A stretch of 32,000 nt of DNA, taken from assembly GCA_030149205.1 (NCBI GenBank), contig JASBSB010000003.1, forward strand, positions 120,001-152,000, read 5' to 3'. Below are positions 11,568-26,589 of this stretch, in pieces. The first letter of the stretch is position 1; each line of letters starts with the position of its first letter. The notes under the pieces were generated by a model. It made no database searches and was not told where the DNA came from. It saw only the letters and a list, made by a program, of their open reading frames with translations. Made by a program: the position numbers and the translations under genes. Origin of the DNA: Candidatus Heimdallarchaeota archaeon (GTDB lineage Archaea; Asgardarchaeota; Heimdallarchaeia; Heimdallarchaeales; Kariarchaeaceae).

Positions 11568-12545
11568 CTAATATTCTAAATCTAAATCAACTTGATTAAC
11601 AAAGTTGTCTCCACCATCTAAAAACATCTTAAGATTTTTTATAACGTCATCCCACCGCTTTATTGAGTCAAACGGTGATGCACCTCTATGTGGGGAAAGA
11701 ATCACATTTTCAAGCTTATAAAATGGATATTTAGTCGCTTCAAAAGGGAATTTCTTATTATTCTCCTCTTTTGGGCTGTAATCATACCAAACATCAATAC
11801 CCGCAGAATCAATTTTTTTAGTCTCTAGTGCATTATAAAATGATTCTTGGTCAATAACATCACCACGGGCAACGTTAATCAAGACCAAATTTGATTTCAT
11901 AATATCAAATTCTCTCTTTCCCAACAATTTGCTTGTTTTCTGTGTTAATGGAACAGCAACAATTAAGGCGTCTAATACCGAAAGAAAATCATCAATTGTA
12001 TCAGGTGTAAATCTACCGATATGATTGTTGATGTTATCATCCTCCCATTTTCTCTTCAAAATAGAAAACTTACAATCAAACCCTTGAAGCATTCTATACA
12101 CATTTTGATTGATTTTTCCAAATCCAAGTAATCCAACATTTAATTCTCTTAAAGGCAAAGATTTTGCGAGTGAATCACCTGTTCGCCAGATACCCTGTCT
12201 CATTGCATTATCATGAATAAATAATCTGGAAGATAGTGCTAACAACATTGCCACTGCATGTTGTGCTGTATAATATGCGTTTCCATGATTATTTACTAAT
12301 ACAGGAGTGATATTAGACGATCTAAAAATAGGTATTAAGTGTTGAACCCCTGCACCAGGGTTAATAAACAATTCTAAATTTGAACATGAATTAAGTAGCT
12401 CTACCGTAGGTCTCCAACCAATCATAACTTCAATTGTAGTTGGATCATAATCCTCTCCGATAATATTAAAATCGGCTTGGGGGATTTGAGATTTAAAGTA
12501 ATCCAGTAGTTGCTTCGAAGGTTCCCAGATTAACAGAACATTCAT
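11568..12545 (-). CDS. D-isomer-specific 2-hydroxyacid dehydrogenase
   Basis: GLLGFGKIN, AVPLTQKT, LINVARGDVID, AGIDVW and ILSPHRG motifs. Confidence 0.9.
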   Translation of the reverse strand: MNVLLIWEPSKQLLDYFKSQIPQADFNIIGEDYDPTTIEVMIGWRPTVELLNSCSNLELFINPGAGVQHLIPIFRSSNITPVLVNNHGNAYYTAQHAVAMLLALSSRLFIHDNAMRQGIWRTGDSLAKSLPLRELNVGLLGFGKINQNVYRMLQGFDCKFSILKRKWEDDNINNHIGRFTPDTIDDFLSVLDALIVAVPLTQKTSKLLGKREFDIMKSNLVLINVARGDVIDQESFYNALETKKIDSAGIDVWYDYSPKEENNKKFPFEATKYPFYKLENVILSPHRGASPFDSIKRWDDVIKNLKMFLDGGDNFVNQVDLDLEY

Positions 12546-12775
12546 TCTTCATTTGCAATCATCATGATTGTACCTTGAATAGCATCTATTTTTCGAATTT
12601 TCTCATTCAAATCAAGATTAATTTCATCAAGATTAGGTGCTTCGATTCTTGCAATAATATCATACACACCATATACGAGATCAATCTCTTTTACCTGTGT
12701 TATACTTTTCAATTCATTTACTACCTCTTCCTCTTTTCCCATCTGAGTATTAATCAATATGAACGCCGTTGCCAT
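12542..12775 (-). CDS. Stand-alone Lrp/AsnC ligand-binding (RAM) domain protein
   Basis: AFILIN...VYGVYDIIARIEA pattern, 77 aa, no HTH; 4-bp overlap with the dehydrogenase gene. Confidence 0.88.
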   Translation of the reverse strand: MATAFILINTQMGKEEEVVNELKSITQVKEIDLVYGVYDIIARIEAPNLDEINLDLNEKIRKIDAIQGTIMMIANEE

Positions 12776-13093
12776 TAGTGAACCTCTTACAATTTGCTTA
12801 GTATTCTAAGACTTTAATAATTTTATTCTTTCGAGAGTTGAAGAAAGGTAAAGAGAAAGAAAATTTATGTCCATCTAGAGTTGAGAATTAATAGAAAACA
12901 AATGGTATTATTGACTTCAATGCTTTTACTTGGAATTTTAGGTTAACTTTTAATAAGTTTTTAGAAAGAAAAAACATAAGTTTAAACAATAATTAGCAAA
13001 TTGATGCAAAAAAAAATTTGTATTTCATCAATACTAAGAAATTACTTCGTATATTTTTTATATAAATAATATATCTTTGGATTACATAAAGAG

Positions 13094-15316
13094 ATGAAAT
13101 TAAAGGAATTAAAAATAGAAAATATTCTTGGATTTCTGGATCCAACTACAATTAAAATTTTAGATGATCTAATATATTTTGTAGGAGAAAATGGATCTGG
13201 TAAAACTAATCTTACTCGTATAATAAATTTTATAATACAGAATTTTGAGCGAGGGTCAGTTGAATATCATAAATTTAGGTTTTGGAATCCCAAAGAAAAA
13301 GCGAATTTTGAAATGATATTTGAACTAAATCAAAATGAACAAATTCTTTGGTCCAAAATAATTAGTTTAAAATTTATAATACTCTTTTCGCATCAATCTT
13401 CTGAACTTAAAATTACGAATGTAGAATTACTTTATAAATTCTATAACTTGTTAAAAAGAGAATTTAATAGCCAAAACGTTTTCAAATATATGATAATTTC
13501 AGGTGAAACAGATGAAAAATCACCTGAAACCATGAAATTTTATGCATCATTTTTAGATGGTAAGAAGAAACTTAAAACTTATATTGATATTTTTGGGATT
13601 GATTCAATCTTTTTTACAAATATACCGCAAATACCACAAGTTCACCAATCTGTGAGGACAATTTATGAAATAAAGCAATTTAATCTAATCTCTTTAAATG
13701 ATGTAAACAAAGTCTTATCAAATCTAGAACTACCAAACTTAATTGGGGGTAATTCAGAAGATGATATTGTAATAAATATTATGAATGGTATTCAAGGAAT
13801 TTTAAGACAAGAAAATAAAGATAATTTAGAATTTTTTTTTCGGACCAATGATTTAGATTATGTTACATTAGAGAAATTTAGGGCAATTAAAGAGTTTAAG
13901 GAAGATATGTTTTCACTTATCGAATTTTTCAGATCGAAGATTCCAAGATTCGACGATGAGAGAAATAATATTAATTTTTATCAATTGATAAACAGAATAT
14001 TAAATAGCAGCATAGATATATTGGTGGAAGATAGGGGATTAATAACAAATTCGGGATATTTTAGTTATTTACGTGGATATACTAAAAACTTAGTTCTTTC
14101 AACTTGTATTAATGATCTAATGAATATGAAAACTTCAATCGATCCAGTTAAGAGAAATCGGTACAATAAAATCAAAAAATCATTTCATAAGTTATTCAAT
14201 GTAGAATTTGAGCTTATCTACGAATATAAAATTCAAGAAGCTGACAATCTTAATCATGACCTACCAATGATGATAAATTTACAGAGTTTGGGAAGAAAAA
14301 TTAATGAATATGATTACATTATTGAATCGATAAACGATAAAAAATTCTATGGGGCTTTTCCAATGGTTGTTTTTATCACTGAAGATGAAACACAGTTTTC
14401 CTTAACCTCTGCACCTGGTGGTTATATTGAAGGTATAATGGTTCTTTACGCTCTTTTTAATTCAGAATCCAACACTGTTGTTTTAGATGAACCTGGAAAC
14501 AGATTTCATACGAAATATTTAATTAAACTAAAGGATTTAATTATTAAAAATCGTAAAAATATCGAGAAAACTTTAATTATCTTTACTCATAGCAAGGAAC
14601 TGATTGATGAGCAAAACTTAAATAATGTAAAAAGAATTATCAGAAAGAATAACAAATCTATTATCAAAAATGTTAATGAATTTATTGATAAATTAAATAT
14701 AAACCAACAAAATAAGATGATAACAAATCTTATTGAACCTTTTTTCTTAGATTTATTCTTCGAAAATAAGGTATTGTTTGTTGAAGGAAAATGGGATTCA
14801 AGGGTATTAACTGCATTAAATTACATATTAGAAAATCCTAAAAATATGAATTTTGATAATTTAAATCCATATGGAAAGATTGTACATACTATCATTAGGT
14901 GTGAAGGAAAGGGTTCATTACTACGAGCTGTACAAGTTTGTAAATTTTTTGAAATCGAATGGTTTGCGATAGTTGATTTTGATGCTATTTGTCAAAATAA
15001 ATTAAAAGAAAGTCAAGAGGTATGGAAAATTCTCGAAGTAGATGGTGTGGAAGACTTAAATGAATCTGTGTTGAGTGACAGCAATACAACCGCAACCCCA
15101 ACAGAAATTCTTGAGTACTGTGAAAATCATAAAATATTTAGTTGGGAAGGTGATTTAGAGAGTTCACTCTCCACTAATAAAGATAAACTTAAGCAGATGT
15201 CAATAACAGAATTAATTGAAAAATTAGAAGAGGAGATTAAAAATAAAAATAAGGAAATGATTAGATTAATTGACTTTCTTAAAGCTAAAGAGTTGTTAAG
15301 AGAACGCATATCATGA
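13094..15316 (+). CDS. OLD-family ATP-dependent nuclease (ABC ATPase + TOPRIM)
   Basis: Walker A GENGSGKT, signature-like SAPGG, Walker B VLDEP, H-switch FTHS, TOPRIM FFENKVLFVEGKWD and DFD, and a C-terminal DLE. Confidence 0.88.
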   Translation: MKLKELKIENILGFLDPTTIKILDDLIYFVGENGSGKTNLTRIINFIIQNFERGSVEYHKFRFWNPKEKANFEMIFELNQNEQILWSKIISLKFIILFSHQSSELKITNVELLYKFYNLLKREFNSQNVFKYMIISGETDEKSPETMKFYASFLDGKKKLKTYIDIFGIDSIFFTNIPQIPQVHQSVRTIYEIKQFNLISLNDVNKVLSNLELPNLIGGNSEDDIVINIMNGIQGILRQENKDNLEFFFRTNDLDYVTLEKFRAIKEFKEDMFSLIEFFRSKIPRFDDERNNINFYQLINRILNSSIDILVEDRGLITNSGYFSYLRGYTKNLVLSTCINDLMNMKTSIDPVKRNRYNKIKKSFHKLFNVEFELIYEYKIQEADNLNHDLPMMINLQSLGRKINEYDYIIESINDKKFYGAFPMVVFITEDETQFSLTSAPGGYIEGIMVLYALFNSESNTVVLDEPGNRFHTKYLIKLKDLIIKNRKNIEKTLIIFTHSKELIDEQNLNNVKRIIRKNNKSIIKNVNEFIDKLNINQQNKMITNLIEPFFLDLFFENKVLFVEGKWDSRVLTALNYILENPKNMNFDNLNPYGKIVHTIIRCEGKGSLLRAVQVCKFFEIEWFAIVDFDAICQNKLKESQEVWKILEVDGVEDLNESVLSDSNTTATPTEILEYCENHKIFSWEGDLESSLSTNKDKLKQMSITELIEKLEEEIKNKNKEMIRLIDFLKAKELLRERIS

Positions 15317-15760
15317 ATTACATAGATTGTTATTTATTAACACAGGGTATTCTATTAGTCATTACAATTATTAATAGTATACCTCTTTAGTGAACTAGGA
15401 AACGAAGTAAGTTTTGATTCTATTAAAAATGAATTTAAAATTCCTTCAATATTTTGATGAAAAATTTTCCACAATTGATTTTAAATATGAGGGAATTAGT
15501 TATAGTAACACTATTCATAAGCAGGCAAGATTAAGAATTGAAAAAAAATACAAGAACAGTTAAAACTGCCATGATTTGTACACCAATCATACAAACCAAT
15601 AGTCAAAGATGTGATAAAAAATTCCACCTGTTAACCCAAATCTTCCATCTGAATTATCAAAAGATGGAATTGTTAAAGGAAAGTTATTTGTCGAATCTCT
15701 TTCACTTCGGTGTAGTTCATTTTGGTATATCCACTTGATATGTCAAAACTATACCTGACT
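15313..15760 (+). pseudogene. Possible frameshifted gene remnant translationally coupled to the OLD gene
   Basis: ATG overlaps the OLD stop (ATGA at 15313-15316). Protein-like fragments continue across frames: ELGNEVSFDSIKNEFKIP / DEKFSTIDFKYEGISY...RIEKK / IQEQLKLP*FVHQSYKPIVKDVIK / KIPPVNPNLPSELSKDGIVKGKLFVE. Confidence 0.3.
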
Positions 15761-16256
15761 CTAGCAACACCAGACTTATCTGAAGATGCATAAATTTCAT
15801 AGATGAATTTCAAGAAATAATGAATGTTTTATGACATTATTCTGGTCACATATTATTAAATTGCTTTATTTTTATTTTTAAGATAAACTTAAAAGATTTG
15901 GTTGGATCAGAATTTTTAGGTGGAATTATCTTAATTCTCACGTCCGAGGTTGTTGAATAATGTGACATAAAAGCCTCAAGTGAACAAAAGATGACTGATG
16001 TTGGTAAGTTTAGATCTTCAGGTCTAGTAAAACTCAGAAAATTTGATACTTAGATAATAAAATTGCCAAAAGAATTTACTAAGGATGCAAAATTTTTGCG
16101 ACTACTAAAAGAACAAATTCAATAATTTTTACTAAAGACAATTACATGTATGGAACTGCTGTAACTGAAGGAAAATTCAGATTGAAATAGCAATATTTAT
16201 CGATATGAAAGAGAGTGACAGAAAAATTTGTATAATATTCAATGAATTGAACACTA

Positions 16257-17282
16257 GTGAGTAGAAGACAAACAAAAATTAATCTAATTGAAAATGGGAT
16301 TCATTCTTTGTATAAGGGTATTTCTCAGTTAGAAAGATATAAACAAAGAGGAAATAGTAGATTTGATTTGAAGGATTCAATTGTTTCAATTCACCATTCG
16401 GTAGAATTATTAATGAAACAAATATTGATTGAGGAGAATGAGCTCCTGATTTTTGACAACCTTACTAAATACCACAATCAATACAAAAACGCGAAAGAAC
16501 AAAATATTGATGTTTTTTCGCTCCAAAAACCACCTTACACGATATCTTTTGATGAAGCAGTTTCAAGGGTAAAATCATTTAAATCTCCAAGAAAACTAGA
16601 TGAACAGTTAGTAGATAAATTGAAAGAATTGAACCAATTAAGAAACAGAATTGAACATTACGAAATTGAGATGGATAAGGACATTGTGGAAACTCTAATA
16701 GCATACATTATAAACCCACTATTAGATCTTTTTAGGACACATATCCAAGATTTTTCGACACATGAAAATCGAATAAACAGTGAACTCCCCTCGCTAAGTT
16801 CTTCCTATAGAAGAATTTCTAATGAAATTATCATGCCAAAGATTAACAAAATATCACAAATAGAGAAGAAGCTTGAATATTTAATTTTCAAATTTGATCA
16901 ACAAAAAATTCAAAATAAACGCTTTGTAAATTTCTCAAATTTGAAAAATGTTCCAAAATACACATCATTGATTCAAAAAAAAATGTATTATAATTTCAAA
17001 TTTGATTATTCCTTTAAATCAAATTCACAATTATGGAGAATTGTTGTTAAAGTGAACCCAAATCAAAATACTTTAATTAATAACATAAATAGGTTTAGCA
17101 AGATCCTAAAACAAGATTCGAAGATTATAATATGGTTAATTTTGGTTTTTGAATTAAGCGATAAATTGTCCAATGCATCCAAGTTATTTTTCAGAAAACA
17201 ATATAAAAAACAAATACCAAACCGACTGTACATCACTTCAATTTCTGATTGGGAACAGTTTGTAGATTATTTCAATAATTAA
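16257..17282 (+). CDS. HEPN-superfamily protein with C-terminal degenerate PD-(D/E)xK-like domain
   Basis: N-terminal SIHHSVELLMK helix and RNRIEH (RxxxxH). The C-terminal FKFDY...WRIVVK resembles a REase core with Glu replaced by Val. Confidence 0.65.
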   Translation: MSRRQTKINLIENGIHSLYKGISQLERYKQRGNSRFDLKDSIVSIHHSVELLMKQILIEENELLIFDNLTKYHNQYKNAKEQNIDVFSLQKPPYTISFDEAVSRVKSFKSPRKLDEQLVDKLKELNQLRNRIEHYEIEMDKDIVETLIAYIINPLLDLFRTHIQDFSTHENRINSELPSLSSSYRRISNEIIMPKINKISQIEKKLEYLIFKFDQQKIQNKRFVNFSNLKNVPKYTSLIQKKMYYNFKFDYSFKSNSQLWRIVVKVNPNQNTLINNINRFSKILKQDSKIIIWLILVFELSDKLSNASKLFFRKQYKKQIPNRLYITSISDWEQFVDYFNN

Positions 17283-17380
17283 TTTTTATTCATTTAAATA
17301 CTCTCTTCCCACATTTATAATATCAAGTGTCAAGGCATCCTATTTCTCCTTATTATTCAATTCACAATCCCATAGAGTTT

Positions 17381-18684
17381 TCAGTACCTCAATCTTGATT
17401 TGACCTTATGCATTAGTTCTATCGGGTTTAAATCAATCTTTACTGTTTTACCTTAAATGGTCTTTACTATTTTCTTTGCAAACTGTACTACGACATCATT
17501 TTACTCACTCGAGAATCAATTCTATCCATGAGCAAATTGTAGAACAGAAATTCAATGAGTGTTACCCCAAATTGCTTAGTAATCTGATCTCTGATGTAAA
17601 TCTTCTCACGCATTGTTTACTATCCTTTAAAATACACCTGGTCAATGATTCTGCTATCCTCATATGCATCAATTAATTCCTACTGTCTCTCACCCAACTT
17701 TTTAGTATTACCCTCATCCTTTTTCGGTAAATTTCTGAGGATATGGCGGATACTATTTTCCATCTTCTTGGTTTGTCCCTTGATATTCTCTGATCATATC
17801 TTGAGCTTTTTATCGAATTTGGGATCAAGTATGGATATAGGTTGAGTCAAATGTGTTATTCCAAGAGAGTGAATATGTCCATTCAAAATCCTCTTGGTTT
17901 TTCCCCTACAACTTGCTGTGAAGACAGTATTTTCATCATATGTACTGTTGGCAAGTTTGCATAATATTCCAAGATATGTTTGGACTTCCTTTCTGGGAAG
18001 TAAAAGATCGAGTGACTTGACAAACCCTCGAAAATCGTCAGCAAATTACTGCCTCACGTCCTCCTTAATCAGAGCTTATTTGGTCTTGACATGCTTTATA
18101 ATATCATAATGCTCGAACAGGGTAACGACAATCATCTGTAAAACTTAATCTACGGGATAATCTCATCAATTGGTATAAGTATATGCTTGAAATCCTGTTA
18201 GTGATAATTTAAGAGAGCTTCTTTCAATGAATTCTTCAAACCAAAATAATCAAATATTGAACCAGAAGCCTTGATATCTCCTTATCTACGATTAACTCGT
18301 GCAATTACCTGAAGGAGGTTATGCTCTTTCTTTCAATGGTTTGCAAGATACATCACCTTCACAATTGGTGCATCAAATCCTGTGAGTAACCTATCACAGA
18401 CGATCAGAATTTTTTTCCCATTCGAGTGAGTTTTCAATTCTCCCTCATTAGCATCTAAGGTATTGTAAGTTTGTACTTTAAAAATTTCATATGTTACTAT
18501 CTTAATACTCTCCTCGTTGATCCAGGGATTGATTCGTGTGATAGCCTCAGATAGTCTTAATCTTTGTAGTGGTTCACTTTCGGTCTCCCGTTTATAACTG
18601 ACATCTGAGGAATCCTTGAAGTTAAATCCAAGATACTTAATCAAACGAAACGCAGATTCTTCGGTTAGAGCCCATTCGCTCTAT
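17381..18684 (-). pseudogene. hsdR: Type I restriction enzyme R subunit pseudogene with large internal deletion, frameshifts and many stops
   Basis: Manual translation gives an N-terminal EWALTEESAFRLIKYLGF...RLSEAITRINP, then directly ILIVCDRLLTGFDAP..MYL/KPLK/HNLLQVIARVNRR*, then a C-terminal region (KSLDLLLP, HIHSLGI, PISILDPKF, MENSIRH) with about ten stops. The start codon is corrupted (ATAG) 1 nt after an AGGAGG Shine-Dalgarno. Confidence 0.9.
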
Positions 18685-19995: not shown

Positions 19996-20958
19996 TTATA
20001 ATGTGAGAGGTCTGTCTCGTATTCCATCAGCTGTAATGTAGAAAATTTCTTCAGATTCTGGTTTTCTTGGGCTGTCGAACAGTCTGGCAATTCGAGCAAG
20101 TCCAGGGGATTTTCTGAGAAGTATTCGTGTTTGTGGTCGATGAGCCCAAGCTTGTCCAAGAGCTGGTTGTGACGCACCACCTGTGGCAAAATCATCGACC
20201 CGAGCAACTACCTGATTGGTTACGACCACCGCCATCCCATAGGTAAACGCCAAAGTAGCCAATAGTGACCCTTGTTGCATAATTTTCTGCTGTCTCTCTG
20301 GTAACCTTTCTTTATCAATATAATCAGTTCTAAAGTGTGCAGCCAAGGAATCAACGATAACAAGTTTGATGTTTTCCTCAGTTGCAATTTCTGCTACTTT
20401 TTTAATCAGCTTAAGCTGGTGGTCTGTGTCCAAGGCTTTCCCGACATAAATATTTCTGAGAACCTTTTGTGGATCCATCTCGTTACCTAAAGCCATTTCA
20501 GCAACTCTTTTTGCTGAGAAGGTGCCCTCAGTGTCAATGTAAAAAACCTTTCCCTCAAGTCCCCCTCTATCCTTTGAAAGTTGAGCATTTACAGCAAGTT
20601 GAAAACAGAGTTGTGTTTTCCCTGAAGCAAAGTTACCAGATAACTCTGTTATCTCTTTCTCCCAGATACCTCCTTCTAAAAGAGAATCTAAAGAATTTGA
20701 ACCAGTGGTCAATCTGTTTCTATTGAGCTCATCCTGAAAAATCTCATCAGCTGTCATTGGTTGGATACCGGTTTCTTCTCTGGCAAGTTCTATCATGCTT
20801 TCTGCGAGGTCTATTCCTATATTGAGTTCTGCTGCCAGATCCTCTGGAAAGGACAAAAGAAGAGATTTGACTGATTTGTAACCAGCTTTCTCCATCTTCT
20901 TTCGGATTTCGTCAGAAATTATTGGAGGAAACTCTTCCTTAACTTTCTTCTTTGTCAC
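19996..20958 (-). CDS. radA: RadA/Rad51-family recombinase homolog, probably a paralog rather than the main recombinase
   Basis: N-terminal HhH-like domain, TTGSNSLDSLLEGG, Walker A GNFASGKT, YIDTEGTF, Walker B VIVDS, VVVTNQV. The L1/L2 loops and FxxA motif are altered. Confidence 0.9.
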   Translation of the reverse strand: MTKKKVKEEFPPIISDEIRKKMEKAGYKSVKSLLLSFPEDLAAELNIGIDLAESMIELAREETGIQPMTADEIFQDELNRNRLTTGSNSLDSLLEGGIWEKEITELSGNFASGKTQLCFQLAVNAQLSKDRGGLEGKVFYIDTEGTFSAKRVAEMALGNEMDPQKVLRNIYVGKALDTDHQLKLIKKVAEIATEENIKLVIVDSLAAHFRTDYIDKERLPERQQKIMQQGSLLATLAFTYGMAVVVTNQVVARVDDFATGGASQPALGQAWAHRPQTRILLRKSPGLARIARLFDSPRKPESEEIFYITADGIRDRPLTL

Positions 20959-22731: not shown

Positions 22732-23463
22732 TCAGGTAAAATTATAATGTTGTTTTTGCCAAGCTGAATGGAATGTCCCAAAGAGCATGAAATAGTAAAT
22801 GTAGAGGGTAAATATCAAACCCAGTGTTGGAAACCAGGAATCTGGTGAATATGTCAACAGAAGCATTAGAACAACACCCAGTACAAAGTGAAACTTATCA
22901 AACAGATTATCAATCTTAGACATTGAAGTAAACGTTAGTGTCGACATCATTAGCAGAGAAATAGTGATAGTTGAAATTGCAATCAGAAAATAGGAGTACC
23001 CAGGGATGAGGTTAAGTGTAAATATGAAAATTGCGGATACAGGAGAAGGCATTCCTGAAAATTGTTTACCCTTACTTTGCATTACAAATCTTGATAACCG
23101 AAATGAAGCCGTTAAAACATACAATCCAGCTGTGATTACACCTATTATTGGGTTAGGTTGTGATAGAATTATGAAAATCGCGGGATAAATTCCAAAAGTC
23201 ATCAAGTCTGCATAGGTATCCATATCAGCCCCAATTTTGTACTTATGTTTGGATTTTCTGGCTAATTTTCCATCAATTGCATCAAAGGATGCACCTAGAA
23301 CTACCAGTCTGGTTAGCCAGATTACTGAATACGTTTCATTAAATATCAGAATTATAGCCCCCACAAATCCAAGTAGAAAGTTCATTGAAGTTGAAAAATA
23401 TGCTAGGACTAACCAACCGTCAACTGTTTTATTAAATATATCAAACTCTTTCTCTAAAATCAT
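22732..23463 (-). CDS. pssA: CDP-alcohol phosphatidyltransferase; phosphatidylserine/archaetidylserine synthase
   Basis: DAIDGKLARK...GADMDTYADLMTFG motif, ASFRLSRF, FSGMPSP; 4-bp overlap with psd. Confidence 0.88.
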   Translation of the reverse strand: MILEKEFDIFNKTVDGWLVLAYFSTSMNFLLGFVGAIILIFNETYSVIWLTRLVVLGASFDAIDGKLARKSKHKYKIGADMDTYADLMTFGIYPAIFIILSQPNPIIGVITAGLYVLTASFRLSRFVMQSKGKQFSGMPSPVSAIFIFTLNLIPGYSYFLIAISTITISLLMMSTLTFTSMSKIDNLFDKFHFVLGVVLMLLLTYSPDSWFPTLGLIFTLYIYYFMLFGTFHSAWQKQHYNFT

Positions 23464-24131
23464 TCACTGACCTCAGCAACAACTGTCAAACCTGCATTAA
23501 CCTTATCTCCGACCTTTATTGCAGGATTTATTTTAATCTTATCAGATTGGATGTATAAGTTTGTCTGGCTTCCGAACCTGATGATCCCCATTTTATCCCC
23601 TTGAAGTACTTTTTCTCCTTTCTTCACCCAAGACTCAATTCTCCTTGCAAACGCACCTGTAAGCTGTAGTACATGATAAACGTTTTCCTTTCCTTTTACA
23701 GAAATTAATTGTTGTTCATTTTTTTCTTCCACGTTACCTAAGAATACATTACTATGTTTACCCGGTTTTTGAATAATAGAAATTACTTCCCCTTCAGCTG
23801 GAGCTCGATTTATATGTACATTAAAGGCATTCATTCGTATCGCAATTTTAAGATCATACTGTTTTGGGGCTAGAGATTTAGGAGATGGGTGATTAACTGT
23901 CTCAACTTCAATTACAGTTCCATCTGCTGGAGCATAGAACTTTTTAGGGTTAATAATAATATCTCTTTTTGGGTCTCTAAAAAACCAAATCATGAAAATA
24001 CCAAATCCAACCGCACAAGCTACCACAATCTCTAATATGAGCCTAATATAACCTGAAATGGGGAGAAATAGCACCACAGGAGTAAGTAGAAAGGGAACAA
24101 TTATTCGCAAGGAACGTGGGGCTACTTTCAC
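23460..24131 (-). CDS. psd: Phosphatidylserine/archaetidylserine decarboxylase proenzyme (short type)
   Basis: FFRDPKR, APADGTV, FNVHINRAP, NEQ, GAFARRI and the FGSQT self-cleavage motif. Confidence 0.92.
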   Translation of the reverse strand: MKVAPRSLRIIVPFLLTPVVLFLPISGYIRLILEIVVACAVGFGIFMIWFFRDPKRDIIINPKKFYAPADGTVIEVETVNHPSPKSLAPKQYDLKIAIRMNAFNVHINRAPAEGEVISIIQKPGKHSNVFLGNVEEKNEQQLISVKGKENVYHVLQLTGAFARRIESWVKKGEKVLQGDKMGIIRFGSQTNLYIQSDKIKINPAIKVGDKVNAGLTVVAEVSE

Positions 24132-24367: not shown

Positions 24368-25411
24368 ATGTCTGTCGGAATTGAAGGGTATGGAGTATAC
24401 ATCCCGTATTTTAGGATAACAGTAAAAGAAATTGCGAGAATGTGGAATGATGACCACAAAACCATCTCAAAGGGAATTAATGTTATTGAAAAAGCAGTTC
24501 CTGATATGGATGAAGACACTGCAACTATCAGTGTAAATGCAGCAAGAAATGCATTGAACCATTCAGGCATTGACCCAAAGAATCTCGAAGCTATTTATGT
24601 AGGCAGTGAATCCCACCCTTATGCAGTAAAACCCACAGCTGTTACAGTGGCTGAGGCGATTGGGGCGACTCCTTATATGACAGCGGCAGATTTAGAATTT
24701 GCCTGTAAAGCAGGTACAGCTGGAATGCAGATGGTCTTTGGTTTAGTAAAAGCTAATGAAATAAAATATGGGTTAGCTATTGGAACGGACTGTGCTCAAG
24801 GTAGACCTGGAGATGCACTAGAGTATACTGCAGGAGCTGGTGGTGCAGCTTTCATAATTGGGAATGAAGCACCTATTGCAACATTAGAGGGAATGGCATC
24901 ATTCACAACAGATACCCCAGATTTTTGGAGAAGAGAAGGAGCAAGGTATCCCTCACATGCAGGCAGGTTTACCGGAGAACCCTCATATTTCCGACACACA
25001 ATATCAGCAACTGAGAGATTGTTAAACAAGCTCAATTTGAATGTAGAAGATTTTGACAGAATTTCATTTCATCAACCAAATGGGAGGTTCCCGTTATCAG
25101 CAGCAAAAATTCTAAACATTCCAAGAGAAAAAGTTGAAGACAGCCTTTGTGTCGTAAAAGTTGGCAACACCTATAGTGCGGCATCAATGGTAGGGTTCGC
25201 GAGACAATTGGATCTTGCTAAACCTGGAGAGAGGATTCTTTTGGTAAGTTATGGATCTGGAGCAGGCAGTGACGCATTTTCCTTTGTTGTTACTGACGAG
25301 ATTGAAAACAAAAGAGATAGAGCGGTTTTAGTTGATCAATACATTTCAAGAAGGAAAGAACTGGATTATGCGATGTATGCTAAACACCGTGGAAAATTTG
25401 TAATGGAGTGA
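24368..25411 (+). CDS. hmgB: Hydroxymethylglutaryl-CoA synthase, archaeal type
   Basis: DEDTATISV, GSESHPYAVKP, EFACKAG (catalytic Cys), FHQPNG, GNTYSA and VSYGSGAGSD motifs. Confidence 0.95.
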   Translation: MSVGIEGYGVYIPYFRITVKEIARMWNDDHKTISKGINVIEKAVPDMDEDTATISVNAARNALNHSGIDPKNLEAIYVGSESHPYAVKPTAVTVAEAIGATPYMTAADLEFACKAGTAGMQMVFGLVKANEIKYGLAIGTDCAQGRPGDALEYTAGAGGAAFIIGNEAPIATLEGMASFTTDTPDFWRREGARYPSHAGRFTGEPSYFRHTISATERLLNKLNLNVEDFDRISFHQPNGRFPLSAAKILNIPREKVEDSLCVVKVGNTYSAASMVGFARQLDLAKPGERILLVSYGSGAGSDAFSFVVTDEIENKRDRAVLVDQYISRRKELDYAMYAKHRGKFVME

Positions 25412-26589
25412 ATCAAATGAAGCAAAGACAGAAAGTGGCAATTATTGGAACAGGAATGACAGCATTTGGGGACCTCTATGAATACGAAATAACAGATATT
25501 TCTAATCTGGCAATTTTTGAAGCATTAAGGTCGTCAAAAGTATCGAGGAAATTGATAGAATCCCTGTATGTCGGAAATATGGGGTCGAATGTTTTTGAAA
25601 ATCAAGAAAATCTGGGAAATTTAATTTCTACATACTCAGGGATCAAAAGTCCAAGTTTTAAAATTCAGGCAGCTGAGGCATCAGGAGCTGTTGCACTAAG
25701 AACTGCATATAAAAATATTTTATCAGAATCTAAGGACATTGTGATGGTTCTTGGGGTTGAGAAAATGACTGAAACCACAAAACAACCAGAACTACAGCAT
25801 GCCTTGGCAACTGGACTGGATACTATGTGGGAAACCAAAATGGGTGCAACCATGGGTGCATTGTTTGCAATCATGGCAAAGTCACATATGAAAAAATATG
25901 GTACAACACGTGAACAGATCGCACAAGTTGTGGTAAAGAACCACAACAATGGGGCAAAAAACCCAAAAGCACAATTTCACAACAAGTTAACCATAGAGAA
26001 AGTTATGAATTCTAAACCTGTGGCTACCCCTCTAAATCTTTTTGACGCTTGTGCTATGAGTGATGGAGCTGCCTCGGTGATCCTAGCAGCAGAAGATGTG
26101 GCATATTCTTATGATAGTGATCCAATTTTCATAATTGACTCAAAACAAGGATTTGCTCCTATAGCTTTACACCAAAGAGATTCATTAACTGAATTTTCGG
26201 GTACAAAATTCGCCGCTGAAAAACTATACAAAGATCATAGCATCTCGAACAAGGACATCTCGTTTGCTGAGGTTCATGATATATTTAGCATTTCAGAGAT
26301 TATTGCAATTGAGTCTTTGGGTTTGGTTCCTGTAGGAGAAGGAGGTAAAGCCACCGAAGAAGGGGTCACATCACTTGATGGAGAAATTCCAATTAATACA
26401 AGTGGAGGCCTAAAAGCTCGTGGAGCCCCATTAGGAGCTACGGGAATAGCTCAAGCGATTGAAGTTTATGAACAATTTAAGGGGTCTGCTGAAAAAAGAC
26501 AAGTTAAAGACATAAATTATGCGATGTCTCATTCTATGGGTGGTTCAGGGGGAACATCAGTAGTAACTTTGTATGGAAGAGGTAATTAA
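25408..26589 (+). CDS. Thiolase-fold (acetoacetyl-CoA thiolase-like) protein lacking canonical catalytic residues
   Basis: Thiolase fold motifs are present (GTGMTAFG, GVEKMT, KNHNNG, SDGAASV, AEVHD, NTSGGLKA), but ACASG reads AEASG, HDCF reads HDIF and GHP reads GAP. Confidence 0.88.
   Translation: MNQMKQRQKVAIIGTGMTAFGDLYEYEITDISNLAIFEALRSSKVSRKLIESLYVGNMGSNVFENQENLGNLISTYSGIKSPSFKIQAAEASGAVALRTAYKNILSESKDIVMVLGVEKMTETTKQPELQHALATGLDTMWETKMGATMGALFAIMAKSHMKKYGTTREQIAQVVVKNHNNGAKNPKAQFHNKLTIEKVMNSKPVATPLNLFDACAMSDGAASVILAAEDVAYSYDSDPIFIIDSKQGFAPIALHQRDSLTEFSGTKFAAEKLYKDHSISNKDISFAEVHDIFSISEIIAIESLGLVPVGEGGKATEEGVTSLDGEIPINTSGGLKARGAPLGATGIAQAIEVYEQFKGSAEKRQVKDINYAMSHSMGGSGGTSVVTLYGRGN

Follow-up and report, generated by a model that had tools for sequence, protein, structure and literature searches.

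A class-wide RadA paralog family of Heimdallarchaeia as a possible archaeal relative of the eukaryotic RAD51 paralogs

The analysed window, that is the whole 32-kb stretch of DNA, contains a gene for a 320-aa protein of the RadA family, which together with its close homologs is labelled here the PALG family. The PALG family is a class-wide, single-copy RadA paralog family of Heimdallarchaeia, and the protein is very likely a non-canonical, putative mediator-type RadA paralog. Because of shared signatures and the grouping in the better-fitting trees, the family may be the archaeal relative of the RAD51 paralogs of eukaryotes. The probability that it represents the archaeal sister or ancestor of RAD51C, XRCC3, RAD51D and their kin is put at about 0.6. 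The RAD51 paralogs mediate recombination in an essential role and act as tumour suppressors in humans; their origin is an unsettled question on which the PALG family bears. Heimdallarchaeia have been proposed as the class closest to eukaryotes (Eme et al. 2023).

The 320-aa protein was compared with the available profile models. The Pfam Rad51 model gave 242 bits and the NCBIfam RadA model NF003301 gave 324 bits, above its cutoff of 259. The scores for TIGR02236 (290 bits, cutoff 361) and for the RadB model TIGR02237 (125 bits, cutoff 172) were under the respective cutoffs, and the RAD51 and DMC1 models remained far under theirs. The NF003301 match covers residues 12-315 and model positions 11-315 of 316, which bears out the full N-terminal helical domain claimed in the original prediction for this gene. 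The features of the gene and protein are collected in Table 1.

Table 1. Location of the PALG-family gene and of its encoded features in the window
Feature	Position (nt)	Strand	Basis or remark
PALG-family gene (320-aa RadA-family paralog)	19996..20958	-	GTG start, TAA-type stop inside the coordinates; ORF list and translation
N-terminal helical (HhH-type) domain, residues 8-62	20773..20937	-	aligned to S. solfataricus and P. furiosus RadA
Linker PMTA replacing the FxxA polymerisation motif (Phe to Pro), residues 67-70	20749..20760	-	alignments
Walker A GNFASGKTQ, intact	20611..20637	-	alignment
YIDTEGTF block with catalytic Glu, intact	20518..20541	-	alignments to RadA and RAD51
Walker B strand KLVIVDS, intact	20347..20367	-	alignments
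L1 region HFRTDYIDKERLPERQQ, GRG lost, two arginines kept	20287..20337	-	alignment
L2 loop of RadA length, PD..FFGDPT replaced	20167..20208	-	alignment
Post-L2 signature PALGQAWAHRPQTRILL, common to RAD51C, RAD51D and XRCC3; trans-acting His kept	20116..20166	-	

As judged from the alignments, the ATPase site comprising Walker A and B, the catalytic Glu and the trans-acting His is intact, and the AHQL that follows Walker A in RadA and RAD51 reads CFQL. The change of FxxA to PMTA, which had been described beforehand, was recovered by alignment with PMTA lying opposite F-K-T-A of S. solfataricus RadA. The change of the L1 GRG to DKE was likewise located, at residues 215-217 (nt 20308-20316) of the L1 region given in Table 1, where the site reads YIDKERL in this protein against YPGRENL in RadA and YSGRGEL in RAD51. 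The RadA-type ERQQ is still present in L1, and the two arginines kept there align as the equivalents of R229 and R241 of RAD51; PMC7618403 lists the arginines through which RAD51, XRCC3 and RAD51C contact DNA. The L2 loop aligns as VDDFATGGAS followed by PALGQAWAH, and the post-L2 change, QPALGQAWAHRPQTRILL, which turns the canonical PxGGxxxAH into PALGxxWxH, occupies residues 264-281 (nt 20116-20169), at the position first claimed. In the aligned rows of canonical RadA and RAD51, the Phe of FxxA, the GRG of L1, the GG of L2 and PD..FFGDPT are near-universal.

The conservation of these features in the family was analysed. All of the 120 nearest database homologs (44-67% identity) carry PALGxxWxHRP and none of them (0/120) has the L1 GRG. 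The linker of nearly all 120 has P instead of F with P-x-[TS]-A as the norm, and one subgroup of the family reads QFSA. The database search with the protein as query retrieved its own family only, and the family shows deep internal divergence. A strong match to the PALGxxW motif, one per genome, was found in 76 of the 82 Heimdallarchaeia genomes, and the motif was also found in 3 Asgard genomes outside the class, which belong to two other families. The remaining scanned Asgard families gave weak matches at most, and those inspected lay on the tail of canonical RadA.

The post-L2 signature was compared with that of the RAD51 paralogs and other groups. In the 135-row alignment, P-A-L-G-x-x-W occurs only in the PALG family and in RAD51C, RAD51D and XRCC3; xGG is kept in RadA of all archaea, in RAD51, in RadB and in every other Heimdall paralog, the five RadB sequences having PxGG in the form P[LIV]GG. 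The eukaryotic motifs given in the original prediction agree with actual sequences: those of RAD51D and RAD51C with the printed human proteins, PALGITW of XRCC3 with the gar protein (LPALGITWANQ), and that of RAD51B with a Nematostella fragment carrying a RAD51B-type motif, IAALGNTWSHAVNTRL. About 90% of the 150 RAD51C/RAD51D cluster representatives have (P/A)(A/S)LGxxW, the rest being mostly fragments or near-variants. At the level of sequence, the post-L2 resemblance between the PALG family and the RAD51 paralogs exceeds chance, because a 31-column profile of the region run against 177,635 PDB sequences ranked RAD51D first (21 bits, E 0.0016) and RAD51C next; RAD51 and DMC1 matched this profile with their LRKGRG tail only. 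The XRCC3 linkers of gar (EPPVTALQLL) and Fundulus (RPPVTALQL) match the pattern PP[VILM][TS]A..LL of the PALG family. Cryo-EM has shown that S304 of RAD51C and L264 of RAD51D touch the ssDNA backbone in a non-triplet binding mode (PMC7618403); in the printed sequences S304 falls in PALGESW and L264 lies at most one residue from the motif Leu. The whole-sequence PDB bit scores of the protein were 251 for RadA, 202 for RAD51, 110 for RAD51C and 94 for RAD51D, and a 65-aa comparison also ranked RadA and RAD51 above the paralogs; these rankings were set aside for ancestry because evolutionary rates differ greatly. A full-text literature search for the motifs gave no match.

The likeness could also have been reached twice. 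An Asgard-internal RadA duplicate could have repacked its post-L2 strand in the same way and lost the polymerisation Phe on becoming accessory, while the eukaryotic RAD51 paralogs arose from a divergent archaeal paralog, whether RadB-like or of another kind, or from an early eukaryotic duplicate. Such convergence is considered unlikely. In its favour, the strictly conserved derived columns shared by the PALG family and RAD51C number only three, and the four changes in the motif swap, by turns along a single strand, a large residue for a small one and a small one for a large one, so that they could be one coupled structural switch and not four independent events. Independent origin has, however, to account for the return of the very same residues (A, L, A/S, W) alongside a linker that, like that of XRCC3, has Pro for Phe, and for a motif whose strong Asgard matches are almost confined to one class. 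If it nevertheless took place, accessory RecA-fold proteins would have reached one structural solution twice, which would itself be striking.

Profile competition was used to compare the groups over the core of the protein. The PALG-family core profile scored best for 140/140 RAD51C representatives, for 10/10 RAD51D and for XRCC3, with a median of 165 bits against 126 or less for the competing profiles. Masking removed the linker, L2 and motif columns, about 40 columns including the trait itself, and the masked profile was still the best for 139/140 RAD51C, 8/10 RAD51D and 1/1 XRCC3, a preference that convergence does not readily explain. The controls (RadB, other Heimdall paralogs and RAD51) did not share this preference, as the PALG-family profile was beaten there by the profile of canonical RadA or of another paralog; for RadB and L005 targets it was another paralog's profile that won. 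A profile of the N-terminal domain only was best for 70/114 RAD51C representatives. In the reverse direction the masked scores were tied, RAD51C profiles giving 184 bits for the PALG family and 183 for canonical RadA, as convergence would have it. Outside the motif, the profile scores favour the link with the RAD51 paralogs only modestly.

The phylogeny was then considered. The name RADbeta is used for the eukaryotic RAD51 paralogs (RAD51B/C/D, XRCC2/3 and Rad55/57), of which RAD51C, RAD51D and XRCC3 were sampled in the trees. Eukaryotic seeds were 50-aa pieces from the supplement of PMC6168637 and PDB alignments, and a profile search with these yielded the 150 cluster representatives. The sample is broad for RAD51C and comprises plant sequences only for RAD51D, one XRCC3, and animal and fungal RAD51; RAD51B, XRCC2, Rad55/57 and DMC1 are outside it, and RadB is represented by five sequences from euryarchaeal genomes. 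The main tree was computed in IQ-TREE under the site-heterogeneous model LG+C20+F+G4 (PMSF) on 79 rows and 254 columns. With all core columns, the PALG family and RAD51C/RAD51D/XRCC3 formed one clade (100/100, stem 0.47), and the same clade was obtained at 100/100 without RadB. RADbeta was monophyletic (99/99) with the PALG family outside and not nested within it. The AU test on the unmasked alignment rejected RADbeta and RAD51 as one clade (dlnL 46, p = 0.0046); an origin of the sampled RADbeta members from within the RAD51 lineage is rejected. When RadB was forced together with RADbeta, the whole group stayed nested in the PALG family, and the AU test of this pairing is uninformative as evidence on ancestry because the constrained tree keeps both nested there. 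The long RadA form groups with RAD51 in some trees.

The dependence of the clade on data and model was also assessed. With masked columns and RadB omitted, the PALG family and RADbeta were separated from the 42 other rows at 88/100, and RADbeta joined the PALG family and not the longer L005 or L006-type branches, which speaks against convergence. With masked columns and RadB present, RADbeta adjoined RadB and the PALG family fell within a RadA polytomy, which is the arrangement expected from independent origin. The masked AU test did not separate the hypotheses (p = 0.32 for the PALG family with RADbeta, p = 0.12 for RADbeta with RAD51). The simpler models did not recover the clade, the base being unresolved under LG+G4 and RADbeta being placed next to RadB by FastTree; both are treated as more prone to long-branch attraction than the mixture model but are counted as evidence against the clade. 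When the PALG family was left out, RADbeta grouped with RadB, L005 and L004-type paralogs at 97-99% support, a result that again suits independent origin and at the same time indicates that the position of RADbeta is labile and prone to long-branch effects. The signal for the clade of the PALG family with RADbeta comes mainly from the L2, motif and linker columns. The claim of the original prediction that the protein is a candidate archaeal representative of the mediator-paralog lineage, for which it had called for a phylogeny, is upheld in part: the mixture model and the unmasked AU test agree with it, and the masked trees containing RadB and the two simpler methods do not recover the clade.

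The other RadA-like genes of the genome bear on the function of the protein. Seven Rad51-fold genes were found in this genome, which probably comes from Kariarchaeaceae or a near relative: the PALG-family gene, two of canonical RadA type and four others resembling RadA. The canonical genes are long forms with FxxA, GRG and GG, at G000 C2 and C8, so that a canonical radA is present elsewhere in the genome, as had been anticipated, and the PALG-family gene is not its sole RadA. It could still be argued under either evolutionary history that the PALG-family protein is a fully active recombinase, a main or specialised strand-exchange RadA with unusual DNA-binding loops which forms filaments despite its Pro-for-Phe linker. 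The intact ATPase motifs and trans-acting His, both L1 arginines, the full N-terminal domain and the score above the NF003301 cutoff are consistent with this, and so is the regular presence of one motif match per genome in the 76 genomes of the class against a variable number of 3-6 other RadA-like matches in each related genome; the QFSA of one subgroup could also still serve as an FxxA motif. The idea is nevertheless improbable, as the Phe of FxxA, the GRG of L1, and the GG and PD..FFGDPT of L2 are all replaced family-wide, canonical-type RadA genes are present in every genome examined, and the TIGR02236 score is under its cutoff. The same substitutions moreover mark the eukaryotic RAD51 paralogs, which do not act as the main recombinase. 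These paralogs act on RAD51 filaments as caps or mediators (PMC7618403).

Horizontal transfer of a eukaryotic RAD51C/XRCC3-like paralog into the ancestor of Heimdallarchaeia would explain the common motif and linker and the range of one archaeal class plus two other families, but it is very improbable because of the tree topology, with the PALG family outside a monophyletic RADbeta, and it also disagrees with a protein that resembles RadA far more closely than does any RADbeta member (ERQQ, L1 and L2 of RadA length, 251 bits to RadA) and with a gene that is single-copy, near-universal in the class and deeply diverged.

On the best-supported reading, with the PALG family as archaeal sister or ancestor of the RAD51 paralogs, a RadA duplication would have occurred before the eukaryotic lineage left Heimdallarchaeia, with the recombinase and a mediator-type partner already separate. 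The recombinase role in this genome would fall to the two long RadA forms. The PALG-family protein is predicted to bind ATP and ssDNA; its linker has no donor Phe and would not allow growth of a homopolymer. The protein may instead dock on or cap filaments of canonical RadA and may assist their nucleation or stability, in the manner of XRCC3-RAD51C and Rad55-Rad57 acting on RAD51. A stronger form of the proposal, given slightly better than even odds, is that the entire RADbeta lineage has its direct archaeal ortholog or ancestor in the PALG family. Heimdallarchaeia would then have a two-tier system of a RAD51-like recombinase and a RAD51C/XRCC3-like cap or mediator, both inherited vertically by eukaryotes, where the mediator gave rise to RAD51B, RAD51C, RAD51D, XRCC2 and XRCC3. 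In that case RadB would not be the relevant archaeal counterpart.

The protein was further compared with the known systems. It shares with RAD51C and XRCC3, and also with RAD51D, RAD51B and Rad57, a RecA-fold ATPase with an N-terminal helical domain, and with RAD51C and XRCC3 the PALG[E/Q/x][A/S]W[x]H after L2, the loss of the polymerisation-motif Phe and the two kept L1 arginines, the XRCC3 linker PPVTALQLL being close to that of the family. It differs from RAD51C in having diverged far less from RadA (251 bits to the S. solfataricus protein against 110 to RAD51C), from RAD51C and XRCC3 in keeping ERQQ and an L1 of RadA length, and from the RAD51 paralogs generally in being single-copy with no sign of a multi-paralog complex. 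Its architecture and length are those of RadA and RAD51, to which it is 40-50% identical along its full length, and its ATPase site is intact, whereas FxxA has become PxxA, GRG is lost, PD..FFGDPT and PxGG of L2 are replaced and AHQL has become CFQL. RadB is usually described as euryarchaeal, whereas the PALG family is Heimdallarchaeial. Both are accessory RecA-fold paralogs alongside RadA, but RadB has about 230-250 aa without the N-terminal domain and P[LIV]GG, against 320 aa with the full domain and PALGxxW in the PALG family. RadB, which is commonly taken as the counterpart of the RAD51 paralogs in archaea, has been modelled as a filament cap and used as their archaeal stand-in in recent structural work (PMC7618403).

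The existence of Asgard RadA paralogs, noted in the original prediction, is established in the literature. A second clade of RadA, present in Heimdall-, Njord- and Gerdarchaea and separate from the other paralogs of the same MAGs, was reported by Matsuo et al. (Genome Biol Evol 2025, PMC12722695), and Ferlez et al. (10.1101/2025.02.19.639135) set aside Asgard groups without canonical L1 or L2 motifs. Compared by description, the 'RadA paralogue' clade of the former and the groups dropped by the latter are probably the same gene family as the PALG family. RAD51B/C/D and XRCC2/3 are absent from both studies, and no mention of the PALGxxW signature was found in their accessible portions. The literature search found no link between the published Asgard RadA paralog clade and the RAD51 paralogs. 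The gene surroundings in the window and in three homolog contigs, in which no conserved recombination neighbour was found, gave no clue to function.

The main reading, if true, has several consequences. Older phylogenies, among them that of Lin et al. (2006), are generally read as setting the paralogs apart from RAD51/RadA already before archaea and eukaryotes diverged, and as linking them to RadB. An origin of RADbeta from or beside the PALG family would date the split of recombinase and mediator to the archaeal ancestors of eukaryotes and would add the recombination mediators to the eukaryotic signature proteins. The slowly evolving, single-copy protein would also offer a simple system with one paralog for the study of capping and nucleation of the RAD51C/XRCC3 type. 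For annotation, four genes of this single genome exceed the NF003301 RadA cutoff, the PALG-family gene among them.

The protein encoded by the window gene is a conserved single-copy RadA paralog of Heimdallarchaeia, which carries two signatures of the eukaryotic RAD51 paralogs (RADbeta; sampled here as RAD51C, plant RAD51D and one XRCC3) and coexists with canonical RadA. It matched the Pfam Rad51 model with 242 bits and the NCBIfam RadA model NF003301 with 324 bits (cutoff 259); TIGR02236 gave 290 bits against a cutoff of 361, and the RAD51, DMC1 and RadB models all scored far under their own cutoffs. The closest PDB sequences were S. solfataricus RadA (251 bits, residues 9-316), P. furiosus RadA (225) and human RAD51 (202), with the RAD51 paralogs far behind (RAD51C 110, XRCC3 109, RAD51D 94, RAD51B 92). 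The alignment confirmed the three departures from canonical RadA named in the original prediction, in the linker, in L1 and after L2, and the full N-terminal helical domain claimed there is kept. Walker A, the Glu of DTEGTF, Walker B and the His of the final AH are intact, from which the protein is predicted to be ATPase-competent. The missing donor Phe of the linker together with the altered loops suggests a putative capping or mediator role.

Positions of the window gene, its altered motifs, its neighbours and the canonical RadA genes of the source genome (G000; C2 and C8 are contigs, L001 and L002 retrieved loci)
Feature	Position	Strand	Remark
RadA-family ATPase gene	19996-20958	-	open frame, 320 codons, GTG start
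PMTA linker motif	residues 67-70	-	RadA reads F-K-T-A here
L1 YIDKERL	window gene	-	RadA/RAD51 read Y-x-G-R-G/E-x-L here
QPALGQAWAHRPQTRILL post-L2	residues 264-281, nt 20116-20169	-	canonical P-[IV]-G-G-[HN]-x-x-A-H
OLD-family nuclease (AAA ATPase + TOPRIM, 740 aa)	13094-15316	+	just downstream of window gene
Phosphatidylserine decarboxylase + CDP-alcohol phosphatidyltransferase pair, adjoining HMG-CoA synthase + thiolase pair	22732-24131; 24368-26589	-; +	
Long-form RadA genes	G000 C2:572847-574145 (L001:907-2205); C8 (L002:1489-2706)	+; -	432; 405 aa

The 120 best database matches, 44-67% identical to the window protein, are annotated as RadA from Heimdallarchaeota, Kariarchaeaceae or 'Asgard group'. 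PALGxxWxHRP occurs in all 120, none has GRG in L1, and nearly all carry the linker P-x-[TS]-A; these homologs are termed the PALG family. A motif profile scanned over 400 genomes of the phylum gave strong matches (52-71 bits), exactly one per genome, in 76 of 82 genomes belonging to the same class and, beyond it, in three genomes from two other families. The remaining families showed no match or 22-25 bits only, and these weak matches, where checked, were tails of canonical RadA (e.g. G368, a Thorarchaeota chromosome). The copy of one family-mate genome was nearest to proteins named Kariarchaeaceae, and family f5 contains sequences almost identical to 'Hodarchaeota' RadA, therefore the family includes Hodarchaeales. 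One related genome holds the motif (G064:C1:2979485-2979571) inside an open frame of 1964 aa against the usual 315-345 aa, which could reflect inteins, fusion or read-through.

The source assembly (93.5% complete) contains seven Rad51-fold genes, the number in forty related genomes being 3-6. Two of the seven are long-form RadA proteins with FxxA, GRG and GG (NF003301 358 and 353 bits); the canonical radA sought elsewhere in the genome is thus present, and the window gene is not its only RadA. The other five are the window gene, a form of 307 aa that lacks the N-terminal domain, two more divergent genes and a 269-aa protein without Walker A. The long forms (L001-type) are extended at the N-terminus by some 100 aa that look like a duplicated HhH module, and in several trees they pair with RAD51 of eukaryotes (FastTree, 84; masked tree without RadB, 96/88). 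They would fit the Heimdall 'group 12', which Ferlez et al. (10.1101/2025.02.19.639135) report to be nearest to RAD51/DMC1. The 269-aa RadA/RadB-like protein (contig C4, L007:1324-2133, minus strand), best matched by the RadB model at 31 bits, may represent a pseudo-ATPase paralog, resembling degenerate members of the Shu-complex or XRCC2-like kind. Among the seven are three further paralog types, on C1 (L004, without N-terminal domain), C4 (L005, 280 aa) and C2 (L006, 423 aa with an acidic C-terminal tail), which have relatives in other Heimdall genomes.

The motifs of the eukaryotic paralogs named in the original prediction proved real in PDB and UniProt sequences, the latter taken from the supplement of PMC6168637. 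A 25-residue query around the motif had human RAD51D as its sole match in the entire PDB, and a 31-column profile of the region (17 family members) ranked RAD51D top (E 0.0016) and RAD51C second, the match of RAD51 and DMC1 being restricted to the downstream LRKGRG tail. The same supplement prints the motif in human RAD51C, in rice and sunflower RAD51D (KPALGESWK), in insect XRCC3 (PALGATW, PALGLSW), in a sequence identified afterwards as gar XRCC3 (LPALGITW) and, as the RAD51B-type AALGNTW, in a Nematostella fragment. Among 150 RAD51C/RAD51D cluster representatives drawn from a library of 1.8 billion proteins, about 90% read (P/A)(A/S)LGxxW, most of the others being incomplete or close variants; RAD51C has the consensus VPALGESW[GAS]H. 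In the cryo-EM study of Greenhough et al. (PMC7618403), where RadB is taken as archaeal paralog, RAD51C S304 and RAD51D L264 contact the ssDNA backbone, and by the sequences compared here both fall within or beside PALGxSW.

An alignment of 135 rows was prepared (26 PALG family, 20 other Heimdall paralogs, 42 canonical RadA from named Asgard and non-Asgard archaea, 5 RadB, 9 RAD51, 25 RAD51C, 7 plant RAD51D, 1 XRCC3). PALGxxW was exclusive to the PALG family, RAD51C, RAD51D and XRCC3; xGG was kept in RadB and in every RadA, RAD51 and other paralog. With GG also present in the RadB outgroup, the derived state is PALGxxW. RecA, outside the alignment, reads TGGNALKF at this site. The XRCC3 linker (E/R)PPVTALQL, set against PP[VILM][TS]A(A/D)(D/E/Q)LL of the family, is a second shared oddity, and RAD51C has also lost the Phe. 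ERQQ and an L1 of RadA length, however, are kept by the family and absent from RADbeta, and a strict consensus scan found 3 columns of 'family = RAD51C, not alpha' against 10 of 'family = alpha, not RAD51C'.

The trees were built from one alignment of the core domain. With LG+C20+F+G4 (IQ-TREE, PMSF; 79 rows x 254 columns) the PALG family was sister to RADbeta at 100/100 (stem 0.47), RADbeta (99/99) lying in a polytomy with PALG sub-lineages; leaving out RadB gave 100/100 again. In FastTree (LG+CAT, 135 rows) RADbeta fell next to RadB at the root and the family lay basal on the RadA side, and LG+G4 left the base unresolved. RADbeta with RAD51 as one clade was rejected by AU (dlnL 46, p 0.0046). 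Forcing RADbeta and RadB together cost only 5 lnL, RadB shifting into RADbeta beside plant RAD51D and all staying nested in the PALG family, so these data do not fix where RadB lies relative to the paralogs of eukaryotes. The support for joining the PALG family and RADbeta depends on columns of the trait itself. When the linker and L2-plus-motif columns were masked (213 columns left) and RadB was present, RADbeta went back to RadB and the PALG family (99/97) fell within the RadA polytomy, the original grouping not being rejected by AU (dlnL 10.5, p 0.32). Masked without RadB, the two stood together against 42 others at 88/100 (stem 0.31), RADbeta joining the family in preference to the L005 and L006-type branches, which are longer; here RADbeta with RAD51 was worse by 22 lnL and not rejected (p 0.12). 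On omission of the PALG family, RADbeta clustered with RadB, L005 and L004-type paralogs; the latter two may be part of a wider RADbeta-like assemblage or may be long-branch artefacts.

HMMs built for the core domains of eight groups were compared on 151 RADbeta sequences. The PALG profile was best for all 151 (RAD51C median 165 bits against at most 126) and, masked, for 148 (128 against at most 111). It was never best for the controls (RadB, other Heimdall paralogs, long RadA forms, RAD51, Hod-type RadA), thus the preference is specific to RADbeta. An N-terminal-domain profile without the linker gave a weak signal, best for 70 of 114 RAD51C, the controls preferring canonical profiles. In reverse, RAD51C/RAD51D/XRCC3 profiles scored PALG members highest over all columns (218 against 190), but about equal to canonical RadA when masked (184 against 183). 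The family is the archaeal group most similar to these paralogs in forward profiles and ties canonical RadA in the masked reverse, so the signal outside the motif is real but modest. The predicted kinship was seen in the signatures, unmasked mixture-model trees and forward profiles, but not in the masked trees with RadB or the masked reverse profiles. Common ancestry of the PALG family and RADbeta is, from the sequences, the somewhat favoured reading (probability roughly 0.6): in its favour stands a distribution that matches the organisms proposed to be closest to eukaryotes, and against it the reliance of the grouping on the motif columns and the unstable placement of RADbeta. Within the library searched, no paper connects RAD51B/C/D or XRCC2/3 with a protein from Asgard archaea. 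A second clade of Asgard RadA, occurring in Heimdall-, Njord- and Gerdarchaea, was described by Matsuo et al. (PMC12722695), whose analysis took in RAD51 and DMC1 only, and Ferlez et al. dropped Asgard groups with non-canonical loops.

No conserved recombination-gene neighbour was seen at the window locus or on three homolog contigs, whose neighbours were unrelated. Upstream of the window gene lie two unassigned ORFs and phospholipid genes; the block of the phospholipid pair and the HMG-CoA synthase + thiolase pair recurs close to the homolog of a JGI contig of 1.1 Mb (L134), so within the family-level group the local gene order is conserved. The OLD-family nuclease lies in an AT-rich stretch (about 12000-18000, 28-30% GC) that looks like a defence islet. 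On a Heimdall-type contig, an Arf/Ras-like small GTPase gene (L135:8108-8647, minus strand) stands 2 kb from the PALG gene; it encodes a eukaryotic-signature-type protein, probably unrelated to the finding.
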